Below are positions 17,457 through 32,400 of a stretch of 64,000 nt of DNA, piece after piece. Numbering within the stretch: position 1 is the stretch's first letter; each line of letters starts with the position of its first letter. The position numbers are program-made. Source of the stretch: a bacterium (GTDB taxonomy: Bacteria > UBA10199 > 2-02-FULL-50-16 > JAJFLM01); the NCBI GenBank assembly GCA_965216315.1, contig CBDCFN010000015.1:352001-416000 (forward strand), in the 5' to 3' direction.

Positions 17457-20400
17457 TAATGAGTGAACTCACCGTCGACATCATTACCGCGGAATCGAGC
17501 CTGCTCGTTGGCGCTCCGGCGTCAAGCATCGTCGCTCCGGGTGTCCAGGGGGCCTTTGAGGTCTTGCCAGGGCACACGACCTTTTTGACCGAGTTGGAGA
17601 CGGGTCCCGTGACCGTTGAGGGTCCCGAGGGGACTCAACGCTTTGTTGTCAGTGGTGGTTTCGCCGAGGTCATGATCGGGCATGTCCGCATTCTGGCGGA
17701 CCACGCCAATGCCGTCGCCGCCATCGATGCCGCTCAAGTCGATCAAGACCTCAAGGCCGTTACGGCCGAGCTCGAAGGGGCCGACCCCTTCGCAGCGGAG
17801 ACCGAGGCCTTGCGTAAGCGCCTGAAATTCCTTGAAGTTCAGCGCTCTCTCCTCAGTTAATCTGTATACAATCGTGGACAGCATTCCCGAATAAATTCGC
17901 AACCTTTTTAGGCAGTGGCCGAAGAGTTTGAGCTTGTGGGCGTCCCTCCTGGGTCGGACGGAATGCCTCAATATATTGTGCACTCGTTAAAGAAGGGGTA
18001 TTGGGCATGCCTATTATTGGTTCCTCACTCGGGTTGGGAAACGCTGGGTTATTGGCTGCTGGAGGGGCGAGCCATAACGTTGGTCTCTTCCAAAGTTTCT
18101 TAGGACAAGCGGTTTCACAGGTCATCGCGTCCGATCGTGCCACGGAAGTTGTCGAGGGCTTGCTCTCACAACCCAATCACGGCACCCTTCTCCAAGAGTC
18201 CGGCATCCAGGCCGAGAGCAGTGAGGACATTCTCGAACAAATAGCCGGTTCCACGGAATATGCCCGCCGTGCCCTCGACAACAGGGAACTCCTCGAGGGG
18301 ATTATTGCCAGTTTTGTTACCCAGGGTCAGGTTGAACTGGGCGATGAGTTTGCGGTTCTCCTCAATCCCGTCACAGCGGGTGTCCATTTTACCGCTGCGG
18401 AGCTCGGAGGAATATACAGCCCCGTGGCGGGGACGGATGCGGGCGCGCGTTATGCGCAACCCCTCTCGCATGCGATTCAAACCGAGACCGCGACCCTGCG
18501 GAACGCCCTGAGTGAGGCGACGACTGCGACGCAGCGTTTAATGGATGCGCGTCATGTGGATGCCACGCAAGCGGCCGCAATTAACGCGGTGTGGACGTCG
18601 ATGGCACGCCTGGACCGGCTCCTCAACGTCGATGTCGTGCAGAAACCCGCCCGGCTGGGAGAAATCGATGAGCTCCAAAAGGCAACGGAGGCCTATCTGA
18701 GTGACTTAGGACTTCAACCGATGTCGCAGTTGGCGCTTGAGATGCGTGAAGGCAATTATCGATTCATGCTCCAGGCCCCGGGTCAGGCCAATGAATATAT
18801 TGGTCTGTTTAAACAGGTCTATGGGCGGTCGGATGTTGCCCGTCGTTTTGTCGACGAGATCGTGATTCCGGCGTTGCGCTCCGAAGGCATTGACGTCAAC
18901 GAATATCTGGACATGGATCCGGCCCAACTCAGCCTCGAGCAGAATAAAGCGGTCCTCAATAGCTCGCGTATTTCGCAGCCGATGATACTGGCGACGCAGC
19001 TGGCGCTGCTGGAAGAATTGAAGTCCTATGGCTTTGATCCGCAGTTTTTTACCGCGGGTTCCGGGCATTCCCAAGGGTTATTGTTGGCGTCGGTAGCGGC
19101 CGGCAAGACAGGTCCGGCTGAAGCCCTGCGCATTGTGGCTATTCACGGACGTGAGATGCAGAACGGCACCAAGGCGGCGAACACGAAGGTGCCGATGGTT
19201 TCCGTGCTGGGTATTTCGCGCATGGAAGCCGCGCGCATGAGTAATGAGATCAATTTGCACTTAGCGCTCGTCAACGGGATACCCGGTGAGACGGCTCCAC
19301 TCAATCCCTCACAGTTGCGCGAACTCAAGGAAAAGGCCGATTCCGATATGCTGTATGGCCGGCTTTTTCCGGTCGAAAAAATGGCCCAGGATCCGGCGTT
19401 GCGTGCGGCCTATCCTTTCTTTGCCCGTTATTTTAACCGCGATTTTCATCTGACGGACGAAGAGATTCGCAAGTTGGGTCTGCCGCGTGGCCTCAATGAG
19501 AGCGCCGCCTTTATCATTCGTGGTGACATGGAAACGACCTATACGGCACTGATCAATATGGAACCGAGTGATGGTTCCCGAACTCGCGGCGTCATGCCGG
19601 CGTTCATCTTTTCCGGGACGCATCAGGCTCAGGAGTTGGTGTTAGGATTATTGGGCAACAAACAAGCCGGAACCGAACCCCATCCCGCGTTTCGCAATGT
19701 CGGGTATAATTTTAATAAGAAAGAAGAGACGACCTTTCCCAAGACGGCAGTCTTGATCACCTCATCACCGTTCCATCATGCCGGGGAACAACGGGCTGCC
19801 TTTGAAAAATCCGTTGCGCGTGCCGATGAGACCCGTGGGGAGGCGACTTTTCCCGTCGTGCTCAACAGCGAGCCCGCGAGTTTTGCCGAACTCGGATTGA
19901 CGCCCCAGCAGGAGGCCCAGCGGATTACGGCGGAACAACATGTGCGCCACGTCGATTGGCCGGCAACGGTCGAAAAAATGCTGACTTTTGGCGATCAGAC
20001 GAAACCGGCTGTATTTGTCAGCATGGGAGACGGAGTGGTGGCGGGTTTTACCGCAGCGACAACCGCGGGTCGTGCGACGACGATTGCCGCGGCCAATAAA
20101 GATGGCAGTGGCTTTGCTCAACTGACTTCACGCAAATCCGCAGGGCTCCGCTTGAGGACCGCCCCACTGGCCGACCGCAGTATCTATGAGCCGATCGAAG
20201 CCCAGGTCTTGGCGGGGCGACCGAACGTCGATGGCCAGTATCTGGGGCCCATAGGCTATCTCTCCAGCGTCACACTCGGCAATGATAAGCAACGCCTGGA
20301 TCTGATTCGCCGCATCCGGAAGGTCGTCGATTTTTCGGATCCCATGCATCCCAAGTTCAATAACGATGAAATTCTAGCACGCCTGGGGGCCGAAGGACCT

Positions 20401-29400: not shown

Positions 29401-32400
29401 TTACAGCGCACCATTGCTGATTTGACGCGTCGTCACGGTGAGGATCCTGTCTTGAGCCAGGCCATGGCCCTTTGGGTCTATCAGATGGCGGCCCAGAATC
29501 GTTTAAATGAAGTAAGTTGGGCACAGGTCCGGCAGTTGTGGGCGAATCGCCAGACGGCTGCTGCAGAATAGCAACGCAACGAGTTGTAGAAGGAGAGAAG
29601 CATGTTTGCATCAATTGGAATGACGTCACTTTATTCCATGGCCGTCCCGACGCTGGCCTCATCGAGTTTTGATATGGCCCTGACTTCAGTGCGCAATTTG
29701 GTCGTGGAAATCAGCGGCAACCAAGCAGCCGCCCAGGCTCCGGCGACGGCAGAATTTACGGATTTTATGGGTTCGGATCTCTTGCCAACGGTCTTGACGG
29801 GATTGGCGAATGCCGTCGGCGAAGATGCCGATACGCTGCGCGGTAAGAAAATTATGACTTTTGGTCAGGCGGCTCAGTATATTCTGGATCGCTCCTAAGC
29901 GCGACGACACTCACGATCGCATCCCCTGCACGATGGACGATGCCTTCGGCATGATGGGCCTGCCATTGACGCAAGCCGGCCAAGCTTCCCCCGCTTAATT
30001 CCAGTCGGTGCCAACGTTCCGTTTCAAGTGGCGCGTTAAACTCGCGGTACATCCACATATTATGACGCGCATCCGGATGGTGCGGGTAGAGGGCCTTGAA
30101 GATCGCCTCACTGATCGCATGACGTTCGGCCATCTGATGGGCACTGGGCCGCGTGTCACCGGGAAACAGCTCTTGGTAGCGGTCTTTAGGGAAATAAATC
30201 TTGGGATCTCCTGGTCCCCACCAGCCTTCTTCGTGGCGCCAAAAAACCCGGGCATCGGCCAGATCGATACCCAGACCGAGAAGATGCGGTGTTTGATGGG
30301 CCGCGCGAATACTCAATAAGCCGAGGGACAAACGGCCCACATCAGTAAAGCTGAGCCGGATATCACCAATGTTGCGCGCCTGTCTTATGCGCTCGAGTGG
30401 TTCGGATAACTGAAACTGCGCGAGACCCGTGTCTGGATCGGGAAAAATTTCAATATCCTGAGGACTCCAGAGGGTATCTCCGCATTCCGGGGCTTGATCG
30501 GTGAGGTATTGCCAGAGGGCCCGCTTGATCTCGATCCAGTTTGTTAGCTTGCGAATCTGTTCCTCGGGATGGTCCTTGAGGGCGGCGATACGTTCCATAA
30601 AGTAGCCCTGCTGCTCCGCGGGAGAAAAATAGTGAGTGATGAGACTGAGGGGCTCGCGACGCTGTTGGCGGCCAATGGGCTGCGTGTCAGCGGCCCAAAA
30701 GATCAGCCCGTGCAGGGGATCCGTCCGGCTTCGGGCGCGCTTAATGACGCGGAGTTGATGCTTGTCCGAATGAATGATGTCGGGGCTGACGGGACCCTGA
30801 AAGAGGGCATTAAGCTCCTGTGCGAAGTCAATCCAGCGCTGGCGTTCGCGCCTCTTGGGTGAAAGCTTCATGGGACGGTAGCCCCGGTAGACCTTTAGTT
30901 CACGTTGTTTTTCGTGACGTGTTTGCCGGGCCGCAAAGGTCTTGGGCAGGAGTCTCTGTCCGAGTTCACGACCGAGATCGAGGCTGAGACTGACCATCAA
31001 GGCCTGACCGGCAAGTCCTAAGGAGGCCCCGAAGAAGCCCGTGTCGCCGGCGATAGACAGGCCTAATAAGATGGCGCCAAATTGGAGACCTTCGCGCAAG
31101 AGAAAGCGGTAGACCTTGCCGGCCGTACTCAGTTCGCTGCGTCGTCCAGGCTTATTCAACAGTCCGTGTTGCAGGAGCCAGGTTGTGGCCTGCTCTTCCG
31201 TCCAGGCGGCGGCCTTGACCAGGCCGACGACGGCCGCAACCGAGGCCGTCGTCGAAAGGAGGTCGGCACCGGAAACGGCGGCCTCACCGGCCGCGAGCTG
31301 ACCGATGGCCTGCTCAATGTTGTGCGTGACGCTTAAGGTGACGGTCTCCGCCGCCAAGCCGATGCCGCGGGCCTTCAATAAGTCGCTCGACTCGGGGCTA
31401 AGCGGATTGATCTCAGCCCCTCGATCAATGGCATTGTCGACGGTTTCGCCCGCCAGCATATTTACGGTGTTGGCAGCGAGACCCCCGAGGAGGCTCGAAG
31501 AGGCCAGGATCGTCGATTGAGTACATACAGGCAACATCGTCCCTGTTTCGGCGAGCGGGACGGACTGTTGCTCGAAAATGAGCAATAATTAGCCTTTATT
31601 TTCAAAGACTTGTCAGATATCACTTTGTTAGCGAGGAGACTCGGATGTCGGTCAGTGATCGTGCGAAAAAAATGAAGCCCTTTTTGGCCATGGAACTTTT
31701 GGAGAAGGTTCAGGCCGCCCAGGCCGAGGGGCGCGATGTTATTTCCCTCGCACTCGGCGAACCAGACTTTGACGCGCCAGAATGCGTCAAGAAATCTATT
31801 GGTGCTGCAATCGCCGCGAACGAGACCAAATACACTCACAGCCAAGGATTGATGGGGCTTCGCGAGGAAATCTGTCGCCATTATTATGAGCGTTATAAAG
31901 TTGAAATTAGCCCAGAGCGCGTCATAGTGACGTCGGGAACTTCGCCGGCCTTGGTCCTGATTTTTGGGGCCCTGCTTGACGCGGGTGAGGAGTTCATCCT
32001 GCCGGACCCTCATTATCCCTGCTACCCGAGTTTTGTCCAATTCCTGAACGGTCAACCCGTCTACGTCCCCGTCGCGGAAGCTGACGGTTTTCAGTACCGG
32101 CCGGAAGAGGTCAAAAAGCGCGTCACGAACCAGACCAAGGGAATCATGCTGACCTCGCCGGCGAACCCGACGGGGACGATTATGGACGCCGATACGATGG
32201 AACAGATGGCTGAACTGGTAGGGGCGCCGCTTGCTGCGCCCGATAAAGGCCCCTACATTGTCAGCGACGAGATTTATCATGGGCTCGTGTATGAACCAAT
32301 TGCGCCGGGTGACGCGGGACACATTTTCGCGAACGAGACTTCAGCGAGCGAGCCGAAAATCGTGTCGCAGCGGCAGGACCCGGCCACTCGTTGCGAACAT

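Follow-up and report, generated by a model that had tools for sequence, protein, structure and literature searches.

The closest described relatives of the enzyme reported here are the type I fatty-acid synthases (FAS-I) of mycobacteria, corynebacteria and fungi (4v8l, 4v8v, 6gjc; yeast 2uv8), which have the same domain order and catalytic residues. The link to them runs through an ordinary FAS-I of genome G014, which matches 4v8v and 6gjc at >1500 bits. The FAS-I studied here is ~21% identical to that of G014 and gave no match to the mycobacterial structures in a single-sequence search. It also differs from the known enzymes in that the Ser-bearing carrier subdomain is replaced by a separate, type-II-like acyl carrier protein (ACP) gene, that there are extra N- and C-terminal modules and that no PPTase gene adjoins it.

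Four further systems bear on the way the gene is controlled and tagged. RipTPS of Ralstonia solanacearum, a 557-aa enzyme whose translocation into plant cells has been shown, duplicates a metabolic enzyme and carries a compositionally biased N-terminal extension attributed to terminal reassortment, the housekeeping copy being kept (PMC4278537); unlike RipTPS, the tagged set described here is a multi-enzyme anabolic route that includes the only FAS, and its export is putative. The T3SS* of Myxococcus xanthus resembles the system found here in being a secretin-less export apparatus in a deltaproteobacteria-like cell, and it attacks bacterial prey; it is described as needle-less and works with Tad/Kil pili, whereas here a needle-like subunit and its chaperone are encoded along with a T2SS, and a Tad ATPase is missing; the excerpted account of T3SS* describes no large tagged enzyme set (PMC12428579). 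Bradymonabacteria are predators with an incomplete FAS II whose T3SS export genes go up during predation; they carry numerous fadL copies and are regarded as scavengers, in contrast to the genome here, which has no FadL and a tagged FAS-I (PMC7460792). Finally, in the flagellar (FliA/sigma-28) and Hrp (HrpL; PMC3879358) late regulons an apparatus-linked sigma factor likewise controls scattered substrate genes, but the regulon described below has a GCAAC upstream box, ~290 sites and mostly enzymes and orphan proteins.

Fatty-acid synthase and separate carrier protein

The window, i.e., the whole stretch of 64,000 nucleotides that was analyzed, contains at 18007..29571 (+ strand, as are all parts of this gene) a single-chain FAS-I of 3854 aa with fungal/mycobacterial architecture. 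Pfam, PDB matches and alignment gave the domain order AT-ER-DH-MPT-KR-KS, and in the alignment the catalytic Ser (AT, MPT), His (ER, DH), Tyr (KR) and Cys-His-His (KS) were all kept. The acetyl transferase (approximately 18730..20166) was recognized by a second stretch of Pfam Acyl_transf_1 and has a GHSQG motif with a conserved Ser355. The FMN-type enoyl reductase (approximately 20194..22026), with a GGGH motif whose His1058 is shared with the ordinary FAS-I of G014, weakly matched FabK 4iql; the corresponding reductase of the G054 and G055 FAS is of the NMO family. The double hot-dog dehydratase (22444..23466; Pfam MaoC, E 2e-8) has His1723, conserved in 8/8 aligned rows covering that position. 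In the malonyl/palmitoyl transferase (23464..24576; Pfam E 2e-24, with PDB matches to FabD and fungal FAS beta), Ser1965 lies in YNSLG rather than GHSLG, the His of the motif being replaced by Asn. An Ala/Pro linker and ACP remnant (24649..25101) were recognized by alignment, and the ketoreductase follows (25804..26706; Pfam adh_short, E 3e-5), with Tyr2769-x3-Lys and the Tyr conserved in 9/9 rows. The ketosynthase (26944..28776) has a conserved Cys3278/His3466/His3506 triad, and its profile A1 matched KasA (E 4e-12) and residues 2778-2999 of mycobacterial FAS-I 4v8l (E 9e-7); a structure model of this region was unusable (pLDDT 41). The C-terminal helical extension (28774..29568) is common to the G054 and G055 FAS by alignment. 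Judged from these residues, the enzyme is very divergent yet catalytically intact, and in domain order and residues it would be a fungal/mycobacterial-type FAS-I, but one of a trans-ACP variant.

Pfam detected no PP-binding domain within FAS-I. In the alignment, the Ser-bearing carrier subdomain (~60-70 residues) is deleted from the FAS of G000, G054 and G055 and kept in those of G014, G024 and G053. Directly downstream, at 29602..29898 (+), a gene with an AAGGAG ribosome site (29590-29595) and no promoter of its own encodes a 98-aa protein which AlphaFold, Foldseek, alignment and the ESM Atlas identified as a stand-alone ACP. It was predicted to form a four-helix fold (pLDDT 92), with Ser58 opening helix II; the top Foldseek matches of the model were all ACPs (TM 0.74, probability 1.00, E 0.02), and the nearest ESM Atlas cluster was 'putative ACP' (0.90), while Pfam gave no PP-binding match to it. 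The Ser was invariant in 3/3 genomes (G000, G054, G055), in a D-S-G motif in G054 and G055 and a G-S-D motif in G000, where Gly instead of Asp precedes it. The ACP has its own uncharged L-A-S leader (~residues 1-22), whose score was equalled by 19/2017 non-regulon genes; the N-terminus was uncharged in G000 and G054 and weaker in G055. PPTases that adjoin FAS genes in relatives had charged N-termini in 11/11 cases, with the leader absent. The survey's finding had overlooked both the ACP gene and the matching deletion in FAS.

Promoter, leader and secretion apparatus

The claim that FAS-I has a sigma-28-type promoter and an uncharged leader was borne out. A variant promoter, GCAAC-N14-GCCGAAGA, is located at 17899..17925 (+), where it scores 21.9 bits and ranks 54th among 2614 genes, with GCAAC at 17899-17903, a 14-nt spacer and GCCGAAGA at 17918-17925, ~80 nt ahead of the ATG. 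Genome-wide, 294 intergenic sites scored >13 bits versus 14-26 with five column-permuted matrices, and 344 matches occurred at the main spacing versus 68-131 at 12 other spacings. Residues 2-21 were devoid of D, E, K and R in 113/255 promoter-bearing genes versus 55/1650 others. The leader, with the core [P/S/G]-L-L-A-[A/S]-S, is common to ~140 proteins (139 in domain scans), including FAS-I, single-chain ACC, an acyl-CoA ligase, an acyltransferase, malic enzyme, PFK and GDH. As had been reported, the ACC-biotin-ligase fusion (C16:1632121-1639887), its partner gene, the acyl-CoA ligase, the acyltransferase and the malic enzyme each have the leader, and the promoter either directly or via an operon. 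Closer to FAS-I, a leader- and promoter-bearing protein of 561 aa (29852..31537, - strand) had no match in Pfam or NCBIfam, and another at 32919..34220 (-) is a RelA/SpoT-type small synthetase (Pfam RelA_SpoT, E 7e-8), in which putative synthetase motifs were recognized by eye. In G024 and G025, too, a similar synthetase gene lies close to FAS.

A Sec or lipoprotein signal peptide was considered as the identity of the leader and rejected: there is no basic n-region, K and R are absent, and hydrophobicity is too low (median over the best 10 residues of 1.56 versus 2.62 for Sec-like N-termini). The leader fits the traits of type III signals (uncleaved, non-Sec, Ser-rich, devoid of acidic residues). 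Three N-terminal rules for Pseudomonas type III substrates were satisfied by 66/275 promoter-defined genes versus 98/1932 others.

In FAS-I the leader is part of a module of ~120 aa (18007..18366, +), recognized by cross-genome comparison, that consists of a ~22-aa uncharged L-L-A-A leader and a helical stretch. The N-terminus shares 53/115 residues with that of the G025 FAS (z=30), whose body is 23% identical to FAS-I here and 53% to G053. The module could also be aligned with that of the unrelated G064 FAS (z=10-12), and FAS and ACC of different genomes have it in common (z 14-18); the enzyme bodies of FAS are 20-27% identical among lineages. On these comparisons, the module tracks taxonomy and the enzyme body is exchanged beneath it, much as terminal reassortment would have it (PMC4278537). 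It may represent a putative type III export signal followed by a chaperone-binding region.

A type III secretion system (T3SS) cluster encodes SctV, SctJ, SctL, SctN, SctO, a FliK/HpaP-type ruler, SctR/S/T and sigma-28, and SctU is encoded elsewhere, so that the injectisome export apparatus (SctR/S/T/U/V), ATPase complex and SctJ ring are all present; SctV was found in 91/93 genomes of the phylum. The cargo genes and a needle candidate (g0848) have the same promoter, and the sigma-28 gene is in the T3SS cluster. The needle candidate is present in 70/93 genomes, with a TPR gene directly after it in 28/30 loci. No needle Pfam family scored above noise, and the top PDB match of its profile was 7y6c_F, from a complex of T3SS needle and chaperone (E 0.054, weak). 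The modeled complex of candidate and TPR protein scored 0.66 versus 0.01 for the best control, with at least 89% contact agreement between runs and partner pLDDT of at least 79; the mark used was passed by 116/157 solved complexes and 2/215 mismatched pairs, and the model may pass through likeness to solved needle-chaperone pairs. A dedicated secretin SctC was not found in the genome, whose one strong secretin is T2SS GspD, with one additional marginal match. A search for a Tad ATPase gave one strong T2SSE match only. Translocator candidates (g0868-g0873), flanked by two TPR genes, have no hydrophobic segment >1.6.

Fatty-acid metabolism in the genome and the phylum

Neither FabA/Z, FabB/F (two thiolase-type matches only), PlsX nor a stand-alone FabD was found in the genome. 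From this gene content, FAS II has been lost and FAS-I is the only fatty-acid synthase. The organism had been described as a fatty-acid scavenger; absence of FadL from the genome speaks against this role, and 11 AMP-binding enzymes, 9 acyl-CoA dehydrogenases and a PlsB-type acyltransferase are in line with it. Because FadL and any other FAS are absent, the organism's own membrane lipids could come from FAS-I.

Leader-less paralogues of malic enzyme, GDH, RtcB, cysteine desulfurase and acyl-CoA ligase, and a separate biotin ligase, were found as reported; PFK, said to have no paralogue, also has a leader-less one (24%, E 3e-11). ACC_central-containing single-chain ACC occurs in 22/93 genomes, and a biotin-ligase fusion in 3 of the 16 full-length single-chain ACCs scanned. 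In 6 genomes FAS and ACC both have the promoter, and a further 3 show the same pattern with a lower score for ACC.

Where the survey had 3 genomes with FAS-I, we detected it in 30 of 93: 10 genes have the promoter, 14 have none although the 5' end is seen, and 6 have no readable 5' end. Several of the genes that were promoter-less by the matrix used are in plain FAS-AcpS-ACC operons. FabA/Z, credited earlier with weak matches at most, was above the cut-off in 6/93 genomes. Acyl_transf_1 was absent from 51/93 genomes in a search that overlooked the FAS of G092; about half of the phylum, rather than most of it, appears to grow without any FAS. In one FAS lineage the nearest named relatives are eukaryotic: in a quick tree, the FAS of G034, G039, G072 and G074 are sister to fungal and protist FAS, and eukaryotic FAS form their own clade in which bacterial FAS are not nested.

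Possible destination of the tagged enzymes

The apparent export tag on FAS, its ACP and the enzyme that feeds them suggests that lipid would be made inside another cell. We regard export into a foreign cytoplasm as fairly probable and, given such export, a prokaryotic target as distinctly the likelier kind, with a bacterium more likely than an archaeon. The full reading casts FAS-I, ACP, ACC and the remaining leader-bearing enzymes as late T3SS substrates at work in the cytoplasm of a second, most probably prokaryotic cell; it is plausible but falls somewhat short of probable. Export is supported by four independent features of the genes and models: the leader on ACP, the portable module, the non-Sec character of the leader and the needle-like subunit. 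A periplasmic destination makes no sense, since the cargo enzymes need ATP, CoA and NAD(P)H.

In such a scheme, the sigma factor would turn on the cargo set once the apparatus is built. ACP would be phosphopantetheinylated either before export, by the leader-less PPTase of the producer, or after delivery, by that of the target, and chains would be threaded unfolded through the needle-like filament and refolded on arrival in the target. Acetyl-CoA and NAD(P)H could then be generated from its sugars and amino acids with the help of PFK, malic enzyme, GDH, histidine ammonia-lyase, threonine dehydratase and cysteine enzymes; ACC would make malonyl-CoA, and FAS-I with its private ACP would make acyl-CoA free of the target's feedback control. 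Acyl-CoA ligase, acyltransferase and G3PDH-like and DAG-kinase-like proteins may channel acyl-CoA to lipid. The attacker lacks FAS II yet possesses beta-oxidation and glycerolipid enzymes that use acyl-CoA, and it would feed on the product. The pathway had been called self-contained, which was an overstatement because PPTase is untagged throughout and the ligase fusion is rare (3/16 ACCs).

Several observations count against export. Known type III substrates reach ~2000-2900 aa, and FAS-I (3854 aa) and the promoter-bearing FAS of G072 (5652 aa) are both larger; FAS-I must also fold as a large FMN-containing oligomer. The untagged PPTase, the Gly before Ser in the G000 ACP and the 14 promoter-less FAS-I genes point the same way. 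Exit from the cell and entry into a walled target are left unexplained, because the sole secretin is T2SS GspD and the translocators are non-hydrophobic; the Bradymonabacteria study calls T3SS entry through the bacterial wall unknown (PMC7460792).

An alternative is a stage-specific program in the producer's own cytoplasm, in which the sigma-28 regulon would mark one stage of life, FAS-I and ACC would make the cell's lipids at that stage, and the leader would serve for localization, chaperone binding or degradation instead of export. It would suit an organism that lacks FadL, has a single, very large FAS and encodes a PlsB-type acyl-CoA acyltransferase next to the ACC operon; leader-less PPTases would share a compartment with FAS, and T3SS regulons commonly include non-exported, non-effector genes (PMC3879358). 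We nevertheless consider it rather unlikely: it does not account for a leader on a 98-aa ACP but not on the PPTase of the same operons, and gives no reason for second, tagged copies of housekeeping enzymes or for module exchange between enzyme bodies, and about half of the phylum seems to live without any FAS.

If the cargo is exported, its domains bear on the kind of target. To our knowledge, all characterized injectisomes target eukaryotes, and a protist or another eukaryotic host would be the usual recipient. Ser/Thr kinases, adenylate cyclases, patatins and a macro domain in the cargo, single-chain ACC with ACC_central in 22/93 genomes and the FAS lineage sister to fungal and protist FAS would all fit such a host. 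Export into it is improbable, in that Ank_2 and LRR_8 are absent from the genome, F-box, U-box or similar domains are absent among the 42/139 leader proteins with a Pfam match, and eukaryotic FAS form a separate clade with no bacterial FAS nested inside. Regulon proteins further include a Sigma70_r4 helicase (E 5e-16), an intact GGEEF cyclase and three hybrid kinases, and these, together with the lack of ankyrin and LRR families, favor a prokaryotic target as far as domain content can indicate. The survey's bacterial target is upheld by these proteins in part: bacterial specificity is lacking in most of the cargo domains (RelA-like synthetase, Ser/Thr kinases, patatins, glycosyltransferase), and the lysozyme it listed was absent from the 139 leader proteins and from another 109 that bear the promoter or are neighbors, a scan with ~50 promoter genes outside it. 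Delivery to a T3SS-fed compartment of the own lineage (progeny, kin or a membrane-bound compartment inside the cell) is very improbable: bacterial-type signaling cargo, a T3SS with neither a dedicated secretin nor hydrophobic translocators and its retention in 91/93 genomes would suit it, but progeny that have a genome could make the enzymes themselves, the fast divergence and replacement of enzyme bodies (20-27% identity) would better suit conflict with a foreign cell, and the needle-like subunit points outwards.

The separation of ACP from FAS, the portable N-terminal module and the needle-like T3SS subunit with its chaperone are the new points of this study. Archaea are not known to have fatty acids to scavenge, and, should export to a prokaryote hold, an archaeal target would give the clearest motive for injected lipid synthesis. 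A broader view, which we regard as doubtful, is that members of this uncultured phylum are bacterial parasites throughout, whose T3SS may inject ~140 enzymes, including a 420-kDa FAS, its private carrier and a single-chain ACC, into a prokaryote that would become a lipid-producing feeder cell, and that some of them may represent the source lineage of fungal-type FAS.

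A fatty acid synthase with a separate carrier protein

The genome under study (G000; 2.96 Mb, 98% complete, 2614 genes called) was compared with 92 further genomes of the same phylum. In the window, the gene at 18007–29571 (+) encodes a fatty acid synthase of type I (FAS-I), 3854 aa long. Pfam recognized two acyltransferase stretches, one MaoC domain, one short-chain reductase and nothing more, and the best PDB matches were FabD proteins and, from fungal FAS beta, its DH-MPT part, which is why we regard this enzyme as highly divergent. When it was aligned with relatives, among them G014 with its ordinary FAS-I (more than 1500 bits to mycobacterial FAS-I), the domain order proved to be AT-ER-DH-MPT-KR-KS, with Ser355, His1058, His1723, Ser1965, Tyr2769 and Cys3278-His3466-His3506 intact. 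A profile of the C-terminal region matched ketosynthases, mycobacterial FAS-I among them; the AlphaFold model of the KS region had a pLDDT of 41. A homologue search with residues 2400–3600 returned four proteins in all, query included, and two scans of metagenome contigs found no relatives.

FabA/Z, FabB/F, PlsX and stand-alone FabD were not found in G000, and its FabH-like match is a type III PKS. The acpP gene is located directly behind yceD and an ORF resembling ribosomal protein L32, at the usual place of fab genes. FAS-I is thus the sole fatty acid synthase of this genome. LpxB and LpxC were also not found in G000, and matches to LpxA/D and AccA were weak and did not look orthologous; as BamA and T2SS are present, the outer membrane would lack lipid A of the standard kind.

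In the alignment, about 60–70 residues between MPT and KR are missing from the FAS of G000, G054 and G055, and in G014, G024 and G053 it is this stretch that bears the phosphopantetheine Ser. Exactly the three genomes with the deletion have a gene of 95–98 aa after FAS, located in the window at 29602–29898 (+). The survey's finding did not mention this adjoining gene. The model of its product had a pLDDT of 92, and the top Foldseek matches were all ACPs (TM 0.74). The Ser with which helix II begins (Ser58 in G000) is invariant in all three proteins, and a small ORF that had lost its Ser was thereby ruled out. The ACP of G000 has its own uncharged L-A-S leader, with a score matched by 19 of 2017 non-regulon genes; residues 2–21 contain one charge in G054 and two in G055. 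PPTases beside the FAS genes of relatives had charged N-termini in all 11 cases examined, and the single PPTase of G000 is leader-less and lies away from FAS, near an NRPS-like cluster. Alignment and structure prediction make the G000 enzyme a new, trans-ACP form of the fungal/mycobacterial FAS-I.

Other carrier arrangements and extended forms were also observed (loci L073:2984-15562 and L075:3823-17130). The FAS-I of G053 has two tandem type-II/PKS-like ACP domains replacing the FAS-I ACP, the carrier-like region is duplicated in G092, and the FAS of G072, G074 and G087 are each extended N-terminally by about 2000 aa. No Pfam match supported a thioesterase that had been suspected at the end of the FAS of G092.

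The promoter, the leader and a portable N-terminal module

De novo reconstruction of the two-box promoter motif (GCAAC-N14/15-(G)CCGATAA-like) yielded 294 intergenic sites, compared with 14–26 for permuted matrices; the FAS site (17899–17925) scored 21.9 bits. Charged residues were absent from positions 2–21 in 113 of 255 promoter genes versus 55 of 1650 others. A Sec or lipoprotein signal was ruled out by the low hydrophobicity of the leader (1.56 versus 2.62 for Sec-like signals). Three type III N-terminal rules fitted 66 of 275 promoter-defined genes and 98 of 1932 others.

The leader rule yields 144 genes, with a few false members (e.g., g0279, g0848, g0937–g0942 and g1968). The Pfam scan initially covered 139 leader proteins (three of four other members and g2523 were added later), and 42 of the 139 had a match. 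Metabolic proteins included ACC-biotin ligase, acyl-CoA ligase, acyltransferase, malic enzyme, PFK, GDH and histidine ammonia-lyase; signalling proteins included three hybrid kinases, a GGDEF protein, two adenylate cyclases, four Ser/Thr kinases and a RelA-like synthetase; and cysteine desulfurase, cysteine dioxygenase, RtcB, DAG-kinase-like, HAD and macro domain proteins were also detected. NCBIfam gave weak matches for 11 of 100 unannotated leader proteins, none above cut-off; one leader protein was weakly G3P-dehydrogenase-like (E about 1e-3 to E. coli GpsA). Leader-less paralogues, which the survey had reported for malic enzyme, GDH, RtcB, cysteine desulfurase and acyl-CoA ligase, were found again, and biotin ligase has one as well. 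So does PFK, for which the survey had seen none by BLAST.

Six more genes in the window have the promoter (245–1192, 6136–6954, 7323–8405, 8504–9310, 34459–35967 and 51528–52667), five of them with uncharged leaders; the last, a double GNAT, is the only one with a Pfam match. About 20 tandem genes at loci L126–L128 (G000:C16:2159000-2208000), almost all without Pfam match, form a second class of regulon members; their promoters are the strongest, and their N-termini contain Cys (M-G/T-C-D-L-Y-G-A-S family). Three patatin-like phospholipases (g0162, g2063 and g2064; loci L168 and L179) have the promoter and near-uncharged N-termini, and could release fatty acids from target lipids. A further stretch of the window (38146–44869; tatA/B/C, a Tat-signal protein and an AraC gene) is AT-richer, has a low coding-model score and was possibly acquired or misassembled.

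The N-terminus behaves as a module. Over the first approximately 120 residues, the FAS of G000 and G025, which belong to the same family, are identical at 53 of 115 positions; the body of the G025 enzyme is 23% identical to that of G000 and 53% to that of G053. N-termini are likewise common to the FAS of G054, G053 and G052 (one family; z about 20). G053 and G054 have FAS at the same locus with bodies 27% identical, the G054 body being 63% identical to that of G000. FAS and ACC of different genomes also have N-terminal stretches in common (z 14–18), as do ACC and its partner in G000. The pattern is that of terminal reassortment, as described for RipTPS (PMC4278537), an additional copy of an enzyme that has an export extension at its N-terminus. 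The leader-bearing system of G000 resembles effectors of the RipTPS type, scaled up to a whole pathway. Overall, the tags, the split-off ACP and the modularity of the N-terminus are real and far from chance.

FAS-I and ACC in the phylum

FAS-I had been reported from three genomes, but FAS-I-like genes were detected in 30 of 93; these and the following counts are descriptive, as related genomes are no independent samples and the MAGs have gaps. The promoter was present on FAS-I in ten genomes (G000, G025, G052–G056, G064, G069 and G072) and absent from 14 with a visible 5' end, as judged by a matrix trained on G000 that may miss sites in distant families; six more had an unreadable 5' end. Promoter-less genes included ordinary FAS-AcpS-ACC operons (G014 and G049), and some lie behind an ACC. 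Single-chain ACC was found by ACC_central in 22 of 93 genomes and in further genomes via other domains; 16 had promoter scores above 12. Six genomes have the promoter on both FAS and ACC, and three more have ACC scores of 10–11. An apparent lack of co-occurrence of FAS and ACC was an artefact of a single query and disappeared with further searches. FabA/Z was found in 6 of 93 genomes, and 51 of 93 had no acyltransferase match.

The ACC-biotin ligase fusion, which the survey had explained by a need for autonomy, does exist; however, it occurs in 3 of 16 full-length ACCs, and therefore autonomy is no general rule. The ACC partner in G000 (1991 aa; locus L040, G000:C16:1626042-1632017) has a weak carboxyl-transferase match, matches the eukaryote-type ACC of G081 (E 3e-16) and is probably a degenerate ACC paralogue. 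FAS and ACC of G055 are frameshifted, probably by assembly errors, because other conserved genes of this genome are split too.

In families f8 and f18, the FAS-I of G034 (contig C4, L096), G072 (L090), G074 (L093) and G039 (L097) found their best named matches in single-chain FAS of fungi and protists (44–52%). In a quick tree without actinobacterial outgroup, 18 named eukaryotic FAS grouped as a single clade (support 96) whose stem is formed by these bacterial enzymes, making them a candidate source lineage of fungal-type FAS. Recent acquisition of the G034-type enzyme from fungi was ruled out, as in this tree it is sister to the eukaryotic FAS and not nested among them.

Export machine, proposed target cell and meaning

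The T3SS cluster (C16:339-360 kb) encodes SctV, FHA proteins, SctJ, sigma-28, FliG-like, SctL, SctN, SctO, a FliK/HpaP ruler, FliM/N/O-like proteins and SctR/S/T; SctU lies elsewhere, and SctV occurs in 91 of 93 genomes. Its sigma-28 may read the GCAAC promoter class. A profile search of the PDB and a complex model point to a needle-like subunit, g0848, and a TPR chaperone, g0849 (locus L136, G000:C16:347385-348459). The former has its own promoter and occurs in 70 of 93 genomes, with a TPR gene following it in 28 of 30 loci. The top PDB match of its C-terminal profile was a chain of a T3SS needle-chaperone complex (weak, E 0.054). The predicted complex scored 0.66 against 0.01 for the best control, its contacts agreeing to at least 89% and the partner pLDDT being 79 or higher. 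It passed a mark that 116 of 157 solved complexes and 2 of 215 mismatched pairs had attained, a pass that likeness to solved pairs may drive. Single-sequence PDB searches with needle and rod candidates gave no matches; g0854 is inner-rod-like by eye. Against a classical injectisome count the T2SS GspD as sole strong secretin, the lack of a detectable Tad ATPase in G000 and translocator candidates without hydrophobic segments. Five proteins with similar helical, Met/Gln-rich tails and no Pfam match (g0868–g0871 and g0873; locus L129, G000:C16:362938-372364) adjoin two TPR genes and are candidate filament, tip or non-hydrophobic translocator subunits.

The most economical reading, and a fairly probable one, is that the tagged enzymes are exported into a foreign cytoplasm. 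Its main rival, a stage-specific role in the producer's own cytoplasm, is rather unlikely but keeps that place because the enzyme, the only FAS of G000, is a very large protein and no FadL is present. The survey had also proposed a fatty acid scavenger; this agrees with 11 acyl-CoA ligase matches, nine acyl-CoA dehydrogenases and a PlsB-type enzyme, but G000 has no FadL, which was found in 12 of 41 genomes searched.

If export is the correct reading, a bacterial target, as the survey suggested, is favoured by a Sigma70_r4 domain on a helicase (E 5e-16), by an intact GGEEF cyclase and hybrid kinases in the leader set, and by the absence of Ank_2 and LRR_8 from the G000 genome. It is favoured, too, by the precedent of a secretin-less T3SS used against bacterial prey (PMC12428579). 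Other points speak against certainty: no lysozyme was found among the leader proteins and further promoter-bearing proteins scanned, the MurG-like domain stays far under the MurG cut-off and amounts to a generic stretch of glycosyltransferase, and RelA-like synthetases, kinases and patatins are able to act in any cell. One FAS lineage of the phylum is also nearest to FAS of fungi and protists, as their sister in the quick tree. An archaeal target would have no fatty acids and would provide the best motive.

No description of a trans-ACP FAS-I or of the portable module was found in the literature covered, which largely excluded subscription journals and left out supplements; those of MAG papers could mention such genes. 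Known effectors sabotage or tune the host, and single metabolic enzymes such as RipTPS are among them. To deliver a whole anabolic pathway, and to inject it by a type III system into a prokaryote, would be parasitism of a new kind, and type III substrates would exceed their present size limit. Independent of export, the phylum offers a natural trans-ACP FAS-I of the fungal/mycobacterial type, useful for ACP shuttling studies and as an orthogonal FAS, and a portable N-terminal module that marks about 140 mostly unknown proteins per genome.
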